The position numbers were made by a program, and so were the translations under genes. From Bacillota bacterium (GTDB lineage Bacteria; Bacillota; Clostridia; Peptostreptococcales; Anaerovoracaceae), in NCBI GenBank assembly GCA_030536355.1, contig JAUNQD010000002.1, positions 920-64,919 on the forward strand: DNA of 64,000 nucleotides, read 5' to 3'. The notes beneath the pieces were generated by a model. It did no database searches. It was not told where the DNA came from and saw nothing but the letters and a program-made list of their open reading frames with translations. Below, in pieces: positions 23,998-31,155 of this stretch; position 1 is the first letter of the stretch, and each line of letters begins with the position of its first letter.

Positions 23998-24014
23998 CCT
24001 TATTTTATTCCATT

Positions 24015-25571
24015 CTAAACTCCCATATTGATTATTCTATCACTGATATGATTCACCATCGGCAGATCGTGAGCGATAAAAAGTATCGCCATATCGTTTT
24101 CTTTCGACAGCTTCTTGAAGAGATGAACTATCTGAGCCTGGGTCGATACGTCAAGACCGGTAAGCGGCTCGTCGGCTATTATAATGTCAGGTCGTGTTAT
24201 GATCGCTCTTGCTATGGCCACCCTCTGTCTCTGTCCGCCGGAAAGTTCATATGGTTTTCGCTCCGCGAAGCTTTCATCCAGCTCCACCTGATGCAAAGCA
24301 CACGTAACGGCTTCTCTGAGATTTTCTTTGCTTCGCAATTCGCGTGCTTCTCCGCGGCTCGCTTTATTATTGACAATTATCAGTGGCTCCGCGATTATCT
24401 CGCCTACAGTCATCCTGTCATTGAACGCGGCGCCTGTATCCTGGAATATCATCCGGATCTTTGTACCGGCTGCAATATTAATGACATCGGTTCCCCTTGT
24501 CGTTCTCTTCTCCTCGAATTTCTCAAGCCCCATTATACACCTTGCCAGTGTCGATTTGCCGCATCCTGATCTTCCCACAAGACCAACTATCTCACCTCTG
24601 TATATATCCATACTGAAATCCTTCAGCACGTGATTTACCGTCTTCTTATCTATCGCATAGCGAACATTGAGGTTCTCCACTGATATCAACGGCAGCTCGT
24701 GCACCCGTTTATCTTCCGATGTCATATCAGATGATGTGGTATCATGATTTCCGTAACCATTTCCTCTGTGATGATGCCCACGATTCTTTTTATAATCAAG
24801 ATATCCCAGAAGCTTTCTCGTATACTCGTGTTTAGGTGATTTGAACACCTCTGCAACGATGCCTTCTTCCACCAGCTTTCCATCTTTCATTATTGCCACC
24901 CTATCTGCCACATCTTCTACGATGCTGAGATCATGGGTGATAAAAAGCACGGCAACACCGGTCTTTTCCTGCACATCTTTAAGCAGGTGTATGATCTCTT
25001 CCTGAGTCTCTTCATCAAGGGCCGTAGTAGGTTCATCTGCCAGTAAGATCTTTGGCTCTGCCGCAAGAGCGATGGCGATAACTATTCTCTGACGCATACC
25101 TCCGGAAAATTGATATGGTCTCTGCCCATATCTCTTATCAGCCTCCGGTATCTTCACAAGCTCCATCAATTCGATGGCGCGCGCCTTTGCATCTGCCTTA
25201 CCGAGCCCTTTATGGACGCGAAGGACTTCGGCTATCTGCTCTCCCACGCTGAATGCCGGATCCAGGCTTGTCATCGGATCCTGAAACACCATGGTGATCT
25301 CTCCGCCGCGGCGTGTCTGCATTTCTTCTTCTGTAAGAGGAATCAGATCTTCCTCATCAAGCAATATTTCACCCTGCTTTATTCTTCCCCTTTCGCAGAG
25401 GATCTTGAGCATGCTTTTGCAAAGCACAGTTTTGCCGCAGCCAGACTCTCCCACCAATGCAAGAGTCTGCCCTTTATCTAAACTAAGGCTAACGCCTTTG
25501 ACTGCCGTCAGTTCACCTGCAGGGTTTTCGAAGGATACTATTAAGTTGTTGATCTTAAGCAACTCGCTCAT
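24015..25571 (-). CDS. Fused double ABC ATPase (Opp/Nik D+E type)
   Basis: GESGCGKT, FSGGMRQR, GRSGCGKST, LSGGQRQR; His-rich inter-domain linker. Confidence 0.92.
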   Translation of the reverse strand: MSELLKINNLIVSFENPAGELTAVKGVSLSLDKGQTLALVGESGCGKTVLCKSMLKILCERGRIKQGEILLDEEDLIPLTEEEMQTRRGGEITMVFQDPMTSLDPAFSVGEQIAEVLRVHKGLGKADAKARAIELMELVKIPEADKRYGQRPYQFSGGMRQRIVIAIALAAEPKILLADEPTTALDEETQEEIIHLLKDVQEKTGVAVLFITHDLSIVEDVADRVAIMKDGKLVEEGIVAEVFKSPKHEYTRKLLGYLDYKKNRGHHHRGNGYGNHDTTSSDMTSEDKRVHELPLISVENLNVRYAIDKKTVNHVLKDFSMDIYRGEIVGLVGRSGCGKSTLARCIMGLEKFEEKRTTRGTDVINIAAGTKIRMIFQDTGAAFNDRMTVGEIIAEPLIIVNNKASRGEARELRSKENLREAVTCALHQVELDESFAERKPYELSGGQRQRVAIARAIITRPDIIIADEPLTGLDVSTQAQIVHLFKKLSKENDMAILFIAHDLPMVNHISDRIINMGV

Positions 25572-25597
25572 TTGTCAACTCCGTTTATCGATATAAC

Positions 25598-27148
25598 TTA
25601 CTCTGTTATGGCCCATTCATGGATATTCCAGAAGATCCCCACACCGTGATGGCCGAGAACGGTGTCTTCTGTTATTCCTTTGATGTTTGATGTACCGGCA
25701 TAGATGGCATCGATGTATGCGATGAATGTATATGCAGGATCAGCCGCCAGTTCTTCCTGGAATCGATCATAAAGATCACTTCTAGTCCCTGCATCTTCGA
25801 TCTGTCTTGCTTCCATCAGCAGCCTGTCCACTTCACTGTTAGAATAACTGTTATAGTTGGCGCCCTTATCTGTGCCGAATACTTTGTATGTGTGATCGTC
25901 AGGATCGAACGGGCTTCCCCAGCCGATGAGGTATGCATCCTGTCCTGCCCAGTCCACTTCGGCAGGAACTTCCACCTTCACGTCCGCTCCCATATCATTG
26001 AGATTCTGAGCGCAGATATTCGCCATATCTATCCTCACCTGATCGCCTTGGGCGCAGTTGATGGTAAAGCTTAGAGTCTGTGTGCCCTTTTTATATATAC
26101 CATCAGCATTCTTCTTCCAGCCTTCCGCTTCAAGAAGGGCTTGAGCTTTAGCGGGATCATACTCATACTTCTCTATGTTTTCATTATTATACGATCCTGC
26201 CTGAAGCGGGGAATAAGCCGCCTTCCCATGTCCCAAAAGCACACTGTCTATTATAGCCTCTCTATCGATGGCATAACTCAGGATAGCGGGAAGTTCTCTA
26301 TGTTCTTTGAAAAGCTTGCTGTTGAAATTATACATGATGCCTCTGTAATCCGAGGTTGCCATGGAATATACGCCGAACCCTTCTTTTCCTGCAAACTTTT
26401 TCTCTGCCTTCGGCGTGATCTGTGCAAAGTTCAATTCTTCCGATTCAAGCTGCAGCGCTCTGGCATCAGTGTCTTCTACGATCTTGAAAATGACCGCATC
26501 GATATTAGGCGATCCCTGATAGTAATTGTCGAATTTCTCCATGGAGATCGCCTGCCCCATATCCCAGCTGACCAGCTTATACGGTCCTGCGCCTACAGGG
26601 TTCTGGTTGAAGTCGGATGTTGTCATGTCCTGCCCTTTCAAGATATGCTTTGGCAGTATCCCTATCGTAAGATAATCCGGCATAGCAACGTTAGGTGCAG
26701 TAAGGACTATATCAACGTGTGTATCATCTATGACTTTGACTTCTTTCACATCTTCGAAGTTGGATGCATTCTCCGACCCATTGGCAGGATCTTTTATCGC
26801 TTCGATAGTGAACTTAACATCTTCTGCAGTAAGCGGTTCTCCGTCATGGAATGTCAGTCCCTCTCTTAATGTGAAACTGTATGTATTGGTGCTTTCATCA
26901 AAATACCAGCTTTCGGCAAGTCCCGGAACCACATTGTTTTCTCCGTCATGAGCAGTAAGCCCGGCGAAAAGCAGCAGGTTTATCTCCCCATGCTCATAGA
27001 GTGCCGGATTGATGGCAGTGTAATCGGAACTGCCGTAAACCAGAGTATCGCTGTCATATACTGGTTTAGCTTTTCCGCAGCCTGTAAGCGATACCGTTGT
27101 GATCATTATGATCATCAGCACCATCGCCAAGAGTTTTTTGTTTTTCAT
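25598..27148 (-). CDS. Family 5 ABC substrate-binding lipoprotein (Nik/Opp-like)
   Basis: Lipobox LTGC, PGLAESW, FHDGEPLTAEDVKFT, NPVGAGPYK. Confidence 0.92.
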   Translation of the reverse strand: MKNKKLLAMVLMIIMITTVSLTGCGKAKPVYDSDTLVYGSSDYTAINPALYEHGEINLLLFAGLTAHDGENNVVPGLAESWYFDESTNTYSFTLREGLTFHDGEPLTAEDVKFTIEAIKDPANGSENASNFEDVKEVKVIDDTHVDIVLTAPNVAMPDYLTIGILPKHILKGQDMTTSDFNQNPVGAGPYKLVSWDMGQAISMEKFDNYYQGSPNIDAVIFKIVEDTDARALQLESEELNFAQITPKAEKKFAGKEGFGVYSMATSDYRGIMYNFNSKLFKEHRELPAILSYAIDREAIIDSVLLGHGKAAYSPLQAGSYNNENIEKYEYDPAKAQALLEAEGWKKNADGIYKKGTQTLSFTINCAQGDQVRIDMANICAQNLNDMGADVKVEVPAEVDWAGQDAYLIGWGSPFDPDDHTYKVFGTDKGANYNSYSNSEVDRLLMEARQIEDAGTRSDLYDRFQEELAADPAYTFIAYIDAIYAGTSNIKGITEDTVLGHHGVGIFWNIHEWAITE

Positions 27149-27157
27149 TTTTCCTCC

Positions 27158-28060
27158 TTACATGTGCCTTTCTCGTCTGTTTCGCACTCTCAGATACTCT
27201 CCGATATCTGTTATACAGATAAGAGTTGCTACCAGAAATACCCCCGGAATAATAAGCATCCACCAGGCTCCCGTGAGCATTGCCCTTTGGGAAAGAGACA
27301 TGAGGCTTCCCCAGGATATTATATCTGTCGGAAGGCCAAGACCCATGAAGCTAAGGGTTGCTTCCATAGCGATGGCACTTCCTATGTTTGTTACTATCAT
27401 GAACATGATGGCTGACATGAAATTAGGCATCAGGTGCTTCCTCAAGATGTATAAAAAGCTTGCACCCATAGTCTTTGCCGCCAGCACGAACCCCGCATTT
27501 CTAAGCTGCTTGACTTCACTTCTGACCATCTTAGCTACAGCCATCCAGCCGGTGATGCCGATGACTACAGATATGGATAACACTGTAGCATCTCCCCAGA
27601 TGGCCTGGATAAAGATGACCATCAGTATCTGTGGGATGCTCAAGAGGATTTCTGTGAATCTCATCATGAGATCATCCGCCTTGTTTGATGCCAGCCCTGC
27701 AGCCGTTCCGTATACGACTGCTATTATGGTCGATATCAGCGTTGCAAGAAGGCCTACTGCTATCGATATCCTACCGCCGTGCCATATGACTGAGAATAAA
27801 TCTCTGCCCAAGGTATCTGTCCCGAATATATGGCTTGCTGATGGTGCCTGACCGATCTGATCCAGCATCATCCTGCCCGGATCATACGGTATGAAAAGTT
27901 CACATATAAGACAGCCTGCTATTATCACGGTCAGGATCGAGATAGATACTACAGGAGGCTTCTCGTGAGATCGCAGAAGTCGATTCTTGTATTCTGCTGA
28001 TTTTCGAAATCTGCCGCCAGGAAATGAGTTGGCAGCCCTCTTCATTATTCTTTCTTTCAT
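27158..28060 (-). CDS. ABC permease (OppC/NikC-like)
   Basis: HIFGTDTLGRDLF, EAA-like AAKTMGAS, HLMPN, LSFMGLG. Confidence 0.92.
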   Translation of the reverse strand: MKERIMKRAANSFPGGRFRKSAEYKNRLLRSHEKPPVVSISILTVIIAGCLICELFIPYDPGRMMLDQIGQAPSASHIFGTDTLGRDLFSVIWHGGRISIAVGLLATLISTIIAVVYGTAAGLASNKADDLMMRFTEILLSIPQILMVIFIQAIWGDATVLSISVVIGITGWMAVAKMVRSEVKQLRNAGFVLAAKTMGASFLYILRKHLMPNFMSAIMFMIVTNIGSAIAMEATLSFMGLGLPTDIISWGSLMSLSQRAMLTGAWWMLIIPGVFLVATLICITDIGEYLRVRNRRERHM

Positions 28061-29076
28061 AAGAGCTGCCCCCTTTCTTCTTTTATCTCAGGGGACAATT
28101 TCTCATTTATTATTTGAGCGATGATATTTACTGTTATTACCATAGCGCCTGTGATGAGGCAGACCAGCATCAACATGTTGTAATCGTGATACTGTGCGCT
28201 TTCCACGCCCAGCTTGCCAAGACCCGGATATGAAAATACCAGCTCCACCACATATGCACCGCCCAGAAGATGCGGCAGGAATATTGCCATTATGCTTATA
28301 CATGCAGGCATGATATTCTTAAGGCAATGGCGGTATATTATCTGCTTTTCGCTGAGACCTTTGACCTTCAGCATGAGTATGTAGTCCTTAATCATTTCGT
28401 CGGAAAGCTTGTTTCGCATAAGATATGTGCAGTACCACAGGTGAGATACCACGATGGCGCTGACAGGAAGTATCAGATGTACGATACGGTCTGTCAATAC
28501 TTCAAGCCCTCCTGATGCTCCGTAACTTGCTGCTCCCATACCTACTGAATTGGCCCCGCTCTGAGGAAGTATGCCCAGTCCTGCTGCGAATATCAATATC
28601 AGTATCAAGGCCACGAAGAATTCAGGCACGCTGTTGGTGGCAACTCCTATCCTGCATATAACTTTATCTATAGCCTTGCCTTCGCGTCTTACGCAAAAAA
28701 TTGCAAGGAAAATGCCTAATATGAATATGAGAGCAAAAGATATGAATGCAAGAGCTGCAGTATTTCCAAACACCTGCCCTATAACATCTGCTGCCGGCTG
28801 CTTGTACTGATATGAGATGCCGAAATCACCTTTTATCGCATCGCCAAGCCAGCCTGTGTACTGAACTATAAGCGAATCATTAAGACCGAGACGCTCTTCT
28901 GCCGCCGCCAACTGCTCCATCGACATTCTCTCAACAGCTTCGCCGTAATATGCCTTGAGCGGATCTCCCGGTGCAAGTCTCGATACGAAGAACACTATGA
29001 TAGACAGCACTAAAAGAGACAGCACCAGTTGTGCTGCTTTTTTTAATATGTATTTGGCTGTCTGCTTCTTGTCCAT
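28057..29076 (-). CDS. ABC permease (OppB/NikB-like)
   Basis: RLAPGDP, GDFGISYQY, VKGLS..HCLKN, VELVFSYPGLG; start moved to ATG 29076 behind GGGAG. Confidence 0.92.
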   Translation of the reverse strand: MDKKQTAKYILKKAAQLVLSLLVLSIIVFFVSRLAPGDPLKAYYGEAVERMSMEQLAAAEERLGLNDSLIVQYTGWLGDAIKGDFGISYQYKQPAADVIGQVFGNTAALAFISFALIFILGIFLAIFCVRREGKAIDKVICRIGVATNSVPEFFVALILILIFAAGLGILPQSGANSVGMGAASYGASGGLEVLTDRIVHLILPVSAIVVSHLWYCTYLMRNKLSDEMIKDYILMLKVKGLSEKQIIYRHCLKNIMPACISIMAIFLPHLLGGAYVVELVFSYPGLGKLGVESAQYHDYNMLMLVCLITGAMVITVNIIAQIINEKLSPEIKEERGQLL

Positions 29077-29235
29077 GATGATCTCCCGATGCAATCCCCG
29101 GCAACGCCGAAGCCCTGCCCTTTGCATAAAAATAAAAAACACGAAAATAATGCCCTGCCCGGAGGGCCCTTATCAGGCTTCCGGAGGAACATTGACCTTC
29201 GTGGTTCTCAAAATGACGCTTCTTGCGTCTGTTCT
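29077..29235 (-). ncRNA. Structured 5' leader of the ABC operon (unassigned attenuator/riboswitch candidate)
   Basis: Long irregular hairpin CACGAA...UUCGUG followed by U tract, second hairpin AUGCAA...UUGCAU beside the RBS, duplicated GGGCAGGGC. Confidence 0.5.
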
Positions 29236-29241
29236 TTTAGT

Positions 29242-29270
29242 ATATTAACAAAAACGCTACTCTTGGTCAA
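29242..29270 (-). promoter_or_regulatory. sigmaA promoter of ABC operon
   Basis: TTGACC-N17-TAATAT with TGn extension. Confidence 0.6.
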
Positions 29271-29946
29271 GAGGTGCGAATCTTAACTCTATAGTGTCTC
29301 CCGCAACATTATAGGGATACACGCCTATGCCATTTTCACTGTATTTCACTTCAGGAATTTTGTTTGTTGCAGTTTGATCCGGAGTGTAGCTTCTGTCAAG
29401 TTCCAAGAGAAGCCTTTTATTTAGCTCATTTATTTCTTTCTTGCTCTTATCAGGGAAAACTGTTTTTAATGTATAATAACACAGCTCTTCATATATGGCA
29501 TAAGTTTCGGGGCTGTAGCTGTGATCATCATAACACATGCTTACTTGATATATACTGCTTTTAGGACTGTCTGCATATATCTTTATTTGAGGCATTGATC
29601 TAGCCTCCGGTTCTTGAGAAAAAACATACATCATCGTTTCTTTTGTATTGTCAAGCATCGGCGCAGTCGCAAACATCTTCCACTTGTAAATTTCCTCCAG
29701 GTAGTCAGAACCATTGTCCTTTGCATAATAACTGTTGAAGCTATTGATGAAATCTTCAGCACAAACATCAAATGCTTCTACGCCTGAATCAGGCTCGATG
29801 ATTTTTATATTGAGTTCGATGACATCTGAATTATTTGGTTTTAAATCTTCAACATCTTCCGCCCTCTGCATGTCACTGCATCCGGCAAACAAAAATATTG
29901 TCATAAGGCATGATAAAACAACTGTTGCCGCTGATCTTATCGTCAT
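29257..29946 (-). CDS. Hypothetical lipoprotein
   Basis: Signal peptide with LFAGC lipobox after GAGGTG RBS (start moved to 29946); AT-rich; family not recognised. Confidence 0.7.
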   Translation of the reverse strand: MTIRSAATVVLSCLMTIFLFAGCSDMQRAEDVEDLKPNNSDVIELNIKIIEPDSGVEAFDVCAEDFINSFNSYYAKDNGSDYLEEIYKWKMFATAPMLDNTKETMMYVFSQEPEARSMPQIKIYADSPKSSIYQVSMCYDDHSYSPETYAIYEELCYYTLKTVFPDKSKKEINELNKRLLLELDRSYTPDQTATNKIPEVKYSENGIGVYPYNVAGDTIELRFAPLDQE

Positions 29947-29996
29947 AAAAACCCACCTCTTTTCATTATTCACTATATCAACTCTTACCTTGGTGG

Positions 29997-30791
29997 TCAA
30001 CCAAACATCTCGTCAAGTTTATCGTCGATATCTTTAATACTGAGAGGCCTGTTTTGAGATTCATAAGTTATAAACAGATTATCACCGAGGACTATACCAC
30101 ACTCAGCATATTCTTCAAGTTTTTTCAAATTACGAAACATGTACTTTTCATCATCTACTCTGCCAAGATGCTCAAGATAGATCAAGCGCCTGCGCTTTGT
30201 ATCGAGAAACGTGAAATCGGGATAGACAGCCTTGTTATCTAGTATCACCTCTGCATCATACCTATACAGCAGCTTTCGATCATCTGCTTTTGTAGCTATC
30301 ATGGCTTCTGATTTGGATCTCGTACATAAATCATTTGATGTATAGTGTGGTTTTTTGATCGGGAATGGATTGGTTCTATACGATGCATTGATCCAGTCTT
30401 CTACATTGATGTCGCCCTCGAGAAATATGTCGACTCCTTTTAATCCCCTGTACTGTTTAGGAAGCTCTCTTTCGATGGCCTTGGGGTCGTATAGAGTATC
30501 ATTTTTTAAAAGCCTCTCAAATACGTTTATTCTCTGTTTTAATATCTTTAACCCTTTAGATATATAGCGCCGTTTTTTTAACTGCCGTAGTAGTTTCCAA
30601 TCATTATCTCTAAGCATTATCTTATATTGCTTATCGTTTTCTTTGACATACCTATAAACATTTTCATTACGATCCGTTATAAGCGTTCCCGTTGGCAAAA
30701 ACTTGTATTCAATGCTGAGTTTTCTGTACAGCCGCAGGCATCTCGCCAGTTCCTGCTGTATTTCATTATGCAAATATCTCTGCCTATCCAT
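29997..30791 (-). CDS. Hypothetical protein with C-terminal PD-(D/E)xK-like (Vsr/DUF559-like) nuclease motif
   Basis: RSKSEAMIA..YRYDAEV..YPDFT..YLEHLG..DDEKY; start moved to 30791 on GAGGTG RBS. Confidence 0.6.
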   Translation of the reverse strand: MDRQRYLHNEIQQELARCLRLYRKLSIEYKFLPTGTLITDRNENVYRYVKENDKQYKIMLRDNDWKLLRQLKKRRYISKGLKILKQRINVFERLLKNDTLYDPKAIERELPKQYRGLKGVDIFLEGDINVEDWINASYRTNPFPIKKPHYTSNDLCTRSKSEAMIATKADDRKLLYRYDAEVILDNKAVYPDFTFLDTKRRRLIYLEHLGRVDDEKYMFRNLKKLEEYAECGIVLGDNLFITYESQNRPLSIKDIDDKLDEMFG

Positions 30792-31155
30792 AATCACCTC
30801 ATTTTTGCAATAACCCTAACAACCCGCCTTTATCATTTCCATTTTATTCCATTTATTATTCTCGTGCAAGGGGCTACTTGCAAATAATTGCACTAAAATT
30901 ATTAAAAATGGTGAATATAGGCAACAATGGTGATGTCTTAGTAGAAACTCCTCATTTCTTTATGATTTTAACTCTTTTTCCAACGTTTGCATCCCCTTCA
31001 CTTAATGATCAAGCTTGTACGCTTACTGATTTTTCTTGCTGCCCCTCAATATCGTTGAAAATAAAGTTAAAAAGAATAAAAAATCTGTACTTTCTACTCC
31101 CGCCAACCATGCTCTAATAAAACCATACTCTAGTCTCCCCAATCTCCCTCAATTA

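Follow-up and report, generated by a model that had tools for sequence, protein, structure and literature searches.

A terminator-based leader with GAA-loop hairpins upstream of nickel and nickel-pincer cofactor genes in Clostridia and other bacteria

The importer operon and its leader

The stretch of DNA analysed here, a 64-kb window of contig JAUNQD010000002.1 from a Bacillota bacterium of the family Anaerovoracaceae, contains an operon for an ATP-binding cassette (ABC) importer of the Nik/Opp/Dpp type, preceded by a structured leader of ~160 nt. Coordinates are those of the whole window, and both leader and operon are on its minus strand. In this study we focus on the leader, which belongs to a new class of terminator-based leaders characterised by GAA-loop hairpins and having a coherent nickel and nickel-pincer nucleotide (NPN, Lar) regulon and a broad phylogenetic range. 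That the leader is a member of a conserved, apparently undescribed family of attenuation leaders controlling this regulon is a reading to which we give a probability of roughly three in four.

The operon (24015-29076) is composed of four genes, from first to last: permease B (28057-29076), permease C (27158-28060), a family-5 solute-binding lipoprotein (SBP_bac_5, 25598-27148) and a fused double ATPase (24015-25571). Comparison with NCBIfam and Pfam places it in the Nik/Opp family, with nickel and oligopeptide permeases as the top matches (best Opp2B), all below cut-off. Gene by gene it is colinear with the ABC part of a larE-larB-larC-ABC operon (locus L118), with identities of 43-62%. Since the operon is orthologous to the ABC part of a lar operon, the importer is best read, on sequence grounds, as a supply line of nickel (or of a nickel complex) for the nickel-pincer cofactor pathway, and not as a peptide transporter. 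The same genome also contains larB, a larE-like gene, a larC-like gene and an FmdE-DUF3842 pair elsewhere, none of which bears the leader motif. Indeed, the window copy is the single one of the genome, and no second copy was found before its larB, FmdE-DUF3842 or larC-like genes.

The leader stretches from a sigma-70-type promoter (29270-29242, score 9/12) to the ATG start codon of permease B (29074-29076), which, like the Shine-Dalgarno sequence GGGAG (29083-29087), was confirmed by a frame check. The -35 hexamer TTGACC (29265-29270) and the -10 hexamer TAATAT with TG upstream (29242-29247) are separated by a 17-nt spacer, and TTGAC(A/C)-17-TAnAAT is found equally far from the first hairpin (H1) in ~20 related leaders. 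Transcription is predicted to start near the AGAA at 29232-29235. At this predicted 5' end AGAA or AGGA is conserved in the family-level alignment, the element being invariant in alignment A1 and present in 18 of the 19 rows of alignment A3.

H1 (GACGC-AAGAA-GCGUC, 29215-29229) has a folding energy of -6.2 kcal/mol (z -7) and displays the conserved loop C-(A)NGAA-G. Ten nucleotides separate it from a long irregular hairpin (29140-29203, -29.8 kcal/mol, z -3.9), an intrinsic terminator that none of 200 shuffles equalled in stability, and whose stem is abutted by the U-run UUUUUUAUUUUU (29128-29139). The 5' strand of the terminator, CACGAAGG, is at the same time the sequence of an alternative, antiterminator-type hairpin, H2 (ACC-ACGAA-GGU, 29195-29205), the core of which, CCAYGAAGG, is invariant in the family. 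In the window, H2 is limited to 3 bp by an A.C mismatch (29206/29194) and reaches only -0.8 to -1.5 kcal/mol. A further hairpin, AUGCAA...UUGCAU (29089-29127), lies between the terminator and the ribosome-binding site. The leader as a whole has a minimum free energy of -58.6 kcal/mol (z -3.4), and one of 200 shuffles was equally stable. A reading made earlier from the sequence alone had described the promoter, the 5' hairpin, the long terminator-like stem with its U-run, the third hairpin, the GGGAG and a pair of GGGCAGGGC copies (29160-29152 and 29120-29112); all were recovered on the minus strand where that sequence-only reading had placed them.

Spread and conservation of the leader

A nucleotide search of related genomes returned three homologous leaders in the same genus, each preceding orthologous permease genes. 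They share with the window leader the promoter, H1 and the sequence CCACGAAGGUYAAU...AUURUUUUUCGUGG followed by the U-run, and all three are devoid of the 31-nt tip of its long stem. This tip, a sub-hairpin at ~29155-29185 that is missing from G004, G036 and G026 as well as from all other relatives, is therefore a private insertion. The irregular stem of ~75 nt reported before does contain the terminator hairpin; most of it is the private insertion and not conserved core. The two GGGCAGGGC copies had been proposed to act as alternative partners of one strand in a switch, and this proposal has to be abandoned: the first copy falls within the private insertion, the second lies downstream of the U-run and therefore cannot prevent termination, and neither is conserved in relatives. 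Moreover, the repeat of a 9-mer inside 170 nt is near chance (estimated p ~0.05).

The hairpin at 29127-29089 is indeed present, and its conservation ends with the genus, no counterpart having been found in other genera. Its inner part CGGCGUUGCCG is common only to G004 and G036, the two species closest to that of the window, and the form CGGCG(U/A)UGCCG is conserved in all three. This genus-specific hairpin may stabilise the 5' end of the mRNA or modulate access to the ribosome-binding site. A leader peptide starting at the ATG at 29192 was also considered and rejected: the frame opens in three close relatives, and G026 has neither an ATG there nor a properly spaced Shine-Dalgarno sequence.

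Two covariance models were used beyond the genus: R1, consisting of H1 and the terminator, and R2, built from 19 hits. They matched 27 of 401 genomes (17 of 121 genera) in the family sample, 44 of 401 genomes (29 of 160 genera) in the order sample and 24 of 399 genomes (18 of 217 genera) in the class sample. A DNA pattern search (GAAG, 8-38 nt, CCAYGAAGG, 12-42 nt, UUYRUGGNUUUU; one genome per species) provided at least 120 further loci. In total more than 150 copies were collected, in Clostridia, Desulfobacterota, Nitrospirota, Spirochaetia and Anaerolineae; by construction of the searches, each has a U-run after the stem. Among the matches listed, the Clostridia carriers include Anaerovorax odorimutans, Alkaliphilus hydrothermalis, Tepidibacter, Thermovorax, Syntrophomonas, Faecalispora, Lachnospiraceae and Christensenellaceae, and the carriers outside Clostridia are many Desulfobacterales, together with Nitrospirota, Spirochaetia, Anaerolineae and NC10. 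One leader from the family of the window has exactly the sequence of the Anaerovorax leader. The related loci do not represent one recently transferred cassette, because their downstream proteins are 55-85% identical and their operon types differ.

The stem of H1 varies in sequence between genomes while its loop remains C-(A)NGAA-G, and four of its five pairs are altered on both sides in the 19-sequence alignment A3. Hairpins of this type occur in 34 of 72 model-derived upstream regions, with 0.2 expected from shuffles, and in 74 of 156 regions overall (0.5 expected), where they have 50 distinct inner stems; these frequencies are biased upward, as the pattern loci were chosen for an upstream GAAG, which the strict shuffles ignore, and as the models contained H1. 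The loops of the 74 strict copies are AUGAA (18), AGAA (13), AAGAA (12), AGGAA (10), UGAA (8), ACGAA (8) and CGAA (4). The linker between H1 and H2 measures 5-103 nt, with a median of 30.

H2 has the general form NNN-ACC-AYGAA-GGU-NNN around the invariant nonamer CCAYGAAGG. Its helix was tested on 67 distinct 25-mers that were not fitted to a model: 78% of the cells are paired, compared with 67.6% after shuffling, and five of seven pairs are altered on both sides, as in AACC/GGUU, UACC/GGUA, GACC/GGUC and UGCC/GGCA. The covariation amounts to 0.323 against 0.156 for shuffled sequences, none of 500 shuffles being as high, and slid controls do not exceed 0.118. The loop is ACGAA in 79 and AUGAA in 77 of the 156 copies.

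In alignment A3, which was fitted to the model and so favours the structure, the stored structure of H1 and terminator is 96% paired, 13 of its 21 pairs are altered on both sides, and the covariation is 0.488 versus 0.214, a value not reached by any of 500 shuffles. This family alignment also retains tandem G.U pairs at the terminator base, with GU in 18 and 16 of its 19 rows. Furthermore, roughly one copy in three, that of the window not among them, has an additional GAA loop (H3) at the tip of the terminator; its strict form is found in 17 of 156 copies with 1.8 expected, and 71 copies have GAA within the tip loop. GAA-loop hairpins other than H2, one or more per copy, are present in 129 of 156 copies, compared with 42 of 156 after shuffling. 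The leader thus combines both generic features of an attenuator, namely a G+C-rich hairpin with an immediate U-run and a conserved alternative structure on the 5' strand of the terminator.

Searches of Rfam 15 gave no match at gathering score over the full window, and with E<=10 for 28900-29450 just four matches were obtained, none of them relevant or within the leader. At E<=1, nothing relevant was found in 19 related loci of Clostridia or in 8 loci of other phyla. The earlier observation that the leader resembles neither cobalamin, Moco, Mn (yybP), NiCo nor T-box elements agrees with the absence of any covariance-model match to these cis-regulators. A full-text literature search, with subscription journals outside its coverage, revealed no riboswitch or leader RNA tied to larB, larC, larE or nickel uptake. 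A 2024 review on bacterial metal sensing has NiCo as its sole entry for nickel, and nickel goes unmentioned in reviews of RNA-binding antiterminators and in two recent large non-coding RNA surveys. The leader is apparently a member of an undescribed family. The earlier proposal of an undescribed regulatory leader is strengthened by its conservation in relatives, by compensatory changes in H1, H2 and the terminator, and by the lack of an Rfam match for the window copy and the 27 related loci.

Genes behind the leader

The first open reading frame (ORF) downstream of 152 copies was clustered, and cluster representatives were annotated. About 80% of the copies precede nickel importers (Nik-type ABC, NikM/CbiM, DUF4198 or TonB receptors), larB, larC or larE, an energy-coupling factor (ECF) S-component, FmdE, a methyltransferase or DUF3842. 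Transport genes are the most frequent: the first gene is a Nik-type permease in 18 copies, a family-5 binding protein in 17, NikM/CbiM in 17, an ECF S-component (PF12822) in 17, DUF4198 in seven, a TonB-dependent receptor in six and Peripla_BP_2 in four. FmdE comes first in 14 copies, an S-adenosylmethionine (SAM) methyltransferase in nine and DUF3842 in six. The Lar proteins are represented by LarE in five copies (TIGR00268, above cut-off), LarB in two (NF033503, above cut-off) and LarC in two (PF01969). A CobN/ChlI chelatase follows two copies, a CDF protein one, and unrelated singletons ~25.

Operon maps bring these genes together in several combinations: larE-larB-larC followed by Nik-type ABC genes; larE-larB-larC, then a FecB-type ABC transporter, then FmdE; FmdE and methyltransferase with either Nik-type ABC genes or an ECF S-component; NikM-N-Q-O; and an ECF S-component followed by a PRK-like kinase. 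The sequence-only reading had guessed at a link to a metal or a metallocofactor, and the downstream context is made of nickel and nickel cofactor genes. This reading was right in spirit, as to an undescribed leader linked to a metal or cofactor, and wrong in structural details, and is in this sense partly supported.

Several members of the regulon deserve description in their own right. Operons of an ECF S-component (PF12822) with a PRK/uridine-kinase-like P-loop protein were found at four loci (L111, L121, L112 and L120), and the genomes of the first two, G737 and G983, have no LarB above the family cut-off. This suggests that such operons salvage a pincer-cofactor precursor or nucleoside instead of serving synthesis. 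CDF-like genes end two ECF S-component operons (L112_3 and L121_3). The FmdE proteins (L109, L124, L123, L122 and others) have an HGHECPG motif and a C-terminal Cys4 ribbon; together with class-I SAM methyltransferases they are regular members of the regulon, often in operons with Nik-type ABC genes. Chelatase genes of the ChlI and CobN types stand behind the motif in Desulfovirgula thermocuniculi (L151) and at L201, which hints at a chelatase for nickel (or cobalt) under the same control.

Just upstream of the window leader, two ORFs of 247 aa (lipoprotein-like) and 266 aa occupy 29257-30797 on the minus strand. They have no Pfam or NCBIfam match and are absent at that position in relatives. 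In G026 (L027), a Gx-transporter gene directly adjoins the leader in divergent orientation, and for this reason the two genes at 29257-30797 seem to have been inserted later, between the leader and the Gx-transporter gene. An exact 13-bp direct repeat, ATTTTATTCCATT, at 24002-24014 and 30841-30853 flanks the ABC operon together with the two upstream genes; none is expected by chance.

A model for the leader and its competitors

H2 and the terminator share one strand and are therefore mutually exclusive. Over 156 copies, the median energies are -4.2 kcal/mol for H2 and -16.8 kcal/mol for the terminator, and the terminator outweighs H2 in all of them. With H2 so much the weaker, the default should be termination before the permease gene; and since H2 is nearly always accompanied by another hairpin of the same loop, an effector reading two GAA loops at once is the simplest model. 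An unassisted leader would terminate upstream of the permease gene, and an effector binding the GAA loops of H1 and H2 jointly would hold H2, so that the polymerase would read through. We infer this polarity, from effector to read-through, from the folding energies. An effector-dependent antitermination leader for the nickel and nickel-pincer regulon is the most likely description of the element.

What the effector is can be said with less assurance. We see an even chance that the RNA itself is the sensor and represents a new riboswitch class. Direct sensing by the RNA is favoured because the motif occurs in at least five phyla, has no linked protein and follows a design similar to that of the guanidine-II riboswitch. 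If the RNA is the sensor, its ligand more likely reports the demand for nickel or NPN, as a nickel-free pincer precursor would, than free Ni2+. The more specific proposal of a riboswitch for nickel demand made of the pair of GAA-loop hairpins, with NPN, its nickel-free precursor P2TMN or a nickel species as ligand, falls somewhat short of even odds.

The guanidine-II riboswitch (mini-ykkC, RF01068) consists of two minimal hairpins that act jointly, with a variable linker and only the loops (ACGR) conserved. The present leader resembles it as a sensor of paired minimal hairpins with conserved loops and a variable linker. It differs in the loop, which is (A)NGAA and not ACGR, allows no C-G self-pairing and is AUGAA in about half of the H2 copies; in its output, a terminator instead of access to the ribosome-binding site; and in its gene context, which is nickel and not guanidine. 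It has no match to RF01068. NiCo (czcD, RF02683) is likewise an RNA of nickel/cobalt homeostasis in anaerobic Firmicutes that acts on termination; it folds as a four-way junction (~90 nt), lies upstream of efflux genes and is switched on by metal. By contrast, the present motif has no junction and precedes uptake and cofactor genes, with one CDF gene among 152; RF02683 gave no match at E<=10 in the leader and none at E<=1 in the 27 related loci. The HMP-PP (thiS) riboswitch is also very small, with conserved nucleotides in the 5' strand of a terminator and one upstream hairpin. Its sequence and thiamine gene context are different, the present leader has no Rfam match, and here the conserved terminator strand forms a covarying hairpin of its own.

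A number of observations weigh against the model of a conserved, effector-dependent antitermination leader. In the window itself, H2 is the weakest seen (3 bp) and the terminator the strongest, so that induction of this copy may be poor. Sequence conservation is confined to ~7 nt per loop, a strict H1 was recovered in no more than about half of the copies, and some pair counts are inflated by model-fitted alignments or by the GAAG required in the pattern. The ~25 unrelated singletons, about one sixth of the pattern matches, are probably false positives of a loose pattern. A His-rich CDF (cation-efflux) gene lies behind the same leader in one genome (L170, Desulfosarcinaceae) and fits no simple logic of importers only. 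Finally, an effector that promotes read-through makes free Ni2+ an odd and unlikely signal for importers; a metabolite accumulating under nickel shortage, such as a nickel-free pincer precursor, or an apo-protein would fit better.

Among the competitors of direct sensing, the best placed is a protein-dependent antiterminator, in which an oligomeric RNA-binding protein reporting nickel or NPN status would bind the GAA loops and stabilise H2. We regard it as unlikely, and it is kept in play because of the low information content of the motif, the repeated identical loops, the variable spacing and the many copies that have no strict H1. A short loop repeated two to three times on otherwise free hairpins, 5-103 nt apart, is typical of sites for dimers or oligomers, and the loss of strict H1 in about half of the copies would be better tolerated by a protein than by an aptamer. 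Paired-loop binding has precedents in ANTAR dimers on dual hexaloops, CsrA on two GGA loops and apo-aconitase on the loops of iron-responsive elements (IRE). On the other hand, no regulator gene was found consistently adjacent to the motif, and riboswitches more typically show such a spread, over at least five phyla with no linked protein.

ANTAR targets come closest to such an arrangement. In eutP, nasF and amiE (Ramesh et al. 2012, PMC3369931), the hairpins have hexanucleotide loops whose first position is A and whose fourth is G, termination is the default and the bound state leads to read-through. As in these targets, two tandem hairpins with the same loop are found here, the second at the 5' base of the terminator and excluding it, which speaks for a protein. 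The loops differ, being 4-5 nt long, of the type (A)NGAA closed by C-G (AAGAA and ACGAA in the window), with G at position 2 or 3 in all 74 H1 loops; the linker can be as long as 103 nt, the terminator tip often bears a third loop, and the regulon is nickel/NPN instead of nitrogen or ethanolamine. A phmmer search of limited sensitivity, with a single Pfam-validated ANTAR query (73 bits), detected nothing at E<=10 among 13152 six-frame ORFs of the window's genome; in the PF03861 genome search the positive control itself was silent. With the hexaloop A1/G4 rule failing and no ANTAR protein detected in that genome, an ANTAR target was rejected.

The NikR C-terminal domain (PF08753) gave no match in the window's genome and was positive in one of 24 motif-bearing genomes of Clostridia, while the control was positive in 5 of 14 genomes, E. 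coli included. Across the class, 28 of 399 genomes (~7%) have matches, weak ones of 20-29 bits and mostly in ORFs of ~90 aa. No anticorrelation between NikR and the motif was found across the class, NikR being simply rare (28 of 399 genomes, which include 3 of 24 motif genomes of this sample).

Among small uncharacterised proteins, DUF3842 alone recurs in the regulon. It adjoins FmdE in the genome of the window (C28:1857-2270, outside the window) and larB in others, with further loci at L127:2307-2717, L138 and L125. The protein is ~137 aa long and highly conserved, with an invariant DGQGGGIG loop, and has at least 7984 homologues, 60-74% identical among those listed. AlphaFold (pLDDT 94) gives it a small Rossmann-like fold that weakly matches nucleotide-binding domains of the PDB, has no close relative there and bears no resemblance to RNA-binding folds. 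DUF3842 is found in 23 of 24 motif genomes, and also in 7 of 12 genomes without the motif. A role as trans-acting factor is not supported in view of its presence in motif-free genomes and its nucleotide-binder-like fold. DUF3842 looks like a cofactor-binding member of the regulon and not its regulator, and is a candidate NPN- or NaAD-binding accessory protein. That the effector is neither the RNA itself nor an RNA-binding protein, and is something else, seems rather doubtful.

The opposite polarity, an OFF riboswitch for Ni2+ or finished NPN, appears improbable. Here the ligand would stabilise a fold compatible with the terminator, possibly with the H1 loop contacting the terminator tip or the conserved tandem G.U pairs, and without ligand H2 would form and transcription continue. 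Repression by the end product or the metal is the expected logic for importers and biosynthesis genes, and both the frequent GAA loop on the terminator tip and the kept G.U pairs at its base could be seen in this light. Nevertheless, H2 (median about -4 kcal/mol) cannot outcompete the terminator (median about -17 kcal/mol) unaided, which makes ligand-free read-through hard to explain, and H3-type loops are missing from two thirds of the copies, the window included.

A lack of any regulation, in which the long hairpin would be a leaky terminator or would serve to end the upstream lipoprotein gene (29257-30000) and the small hairpins would arise by chance, is very improbable. The upstream ORF does end at 29257, ~55 nt before the terminator stem, and the window has a single copy of the motif; against this, promoter, H1 and H2 are found at fixed spacing in relatives with different upstream genes, the motif is tied to nickel/NPN genes across phyla, and H1 and H2 show compensatory changes. 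A terminator of the upstream gene was rejected, as the promoter is conserved while upstream genes differ.

A DNA operator whose inverted repeats bind NikR or another transcription factor as a roadblock is scarcely credible: CCAYGAAGG...CYUYRUGG is palindromic as DNA, and NikR operators, the classical control of nickel uptake, have the same targets (nik ABC, NikMNQO and TonB receptors), but NikR is a DNA-binding repressor and the present element an RNA structure, strand-specific and always followed by the U-run, whose H1 and H2 arms covary around a conserved centre, the opposite of a protein operator, and a NikR operator was rejected as NikR is absent from the window's genome and rare or weak elsewhere, as described above.

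Nickel uptake in most Clostridia and in many sulfate reducers has, to our knowledge, no assigned regulator, and the only described nickel-related RNA is NiCo, which controls efflux. A conserved leader before Nik-type ABC transporters, NikMNQO, TonB/DUF4198 and larB/larC/larE would fill this gap. The regulon would also tie the ECF S-component with its PRK-like kinase, FmdE, the SAM methyltransferase, DUF3842 and DUF4198 to nickel/NPN metabolism. For annotation, the motif marks an 'oligopeptide' ABC transporter as a nickel (or nickel-complex) importer, as in the window. If the RNA senses directly, it would be a new and unusually small riboswitch class, in which sensing of nickel demand would become testable with a 60-nt RNA; with a nickel species or a compound of the NPN pathway as its ligand, it would be the first RNA sensor for nickel uptake as well as the first NPN riboswitch, spread over anaerobes of at least five phyla.

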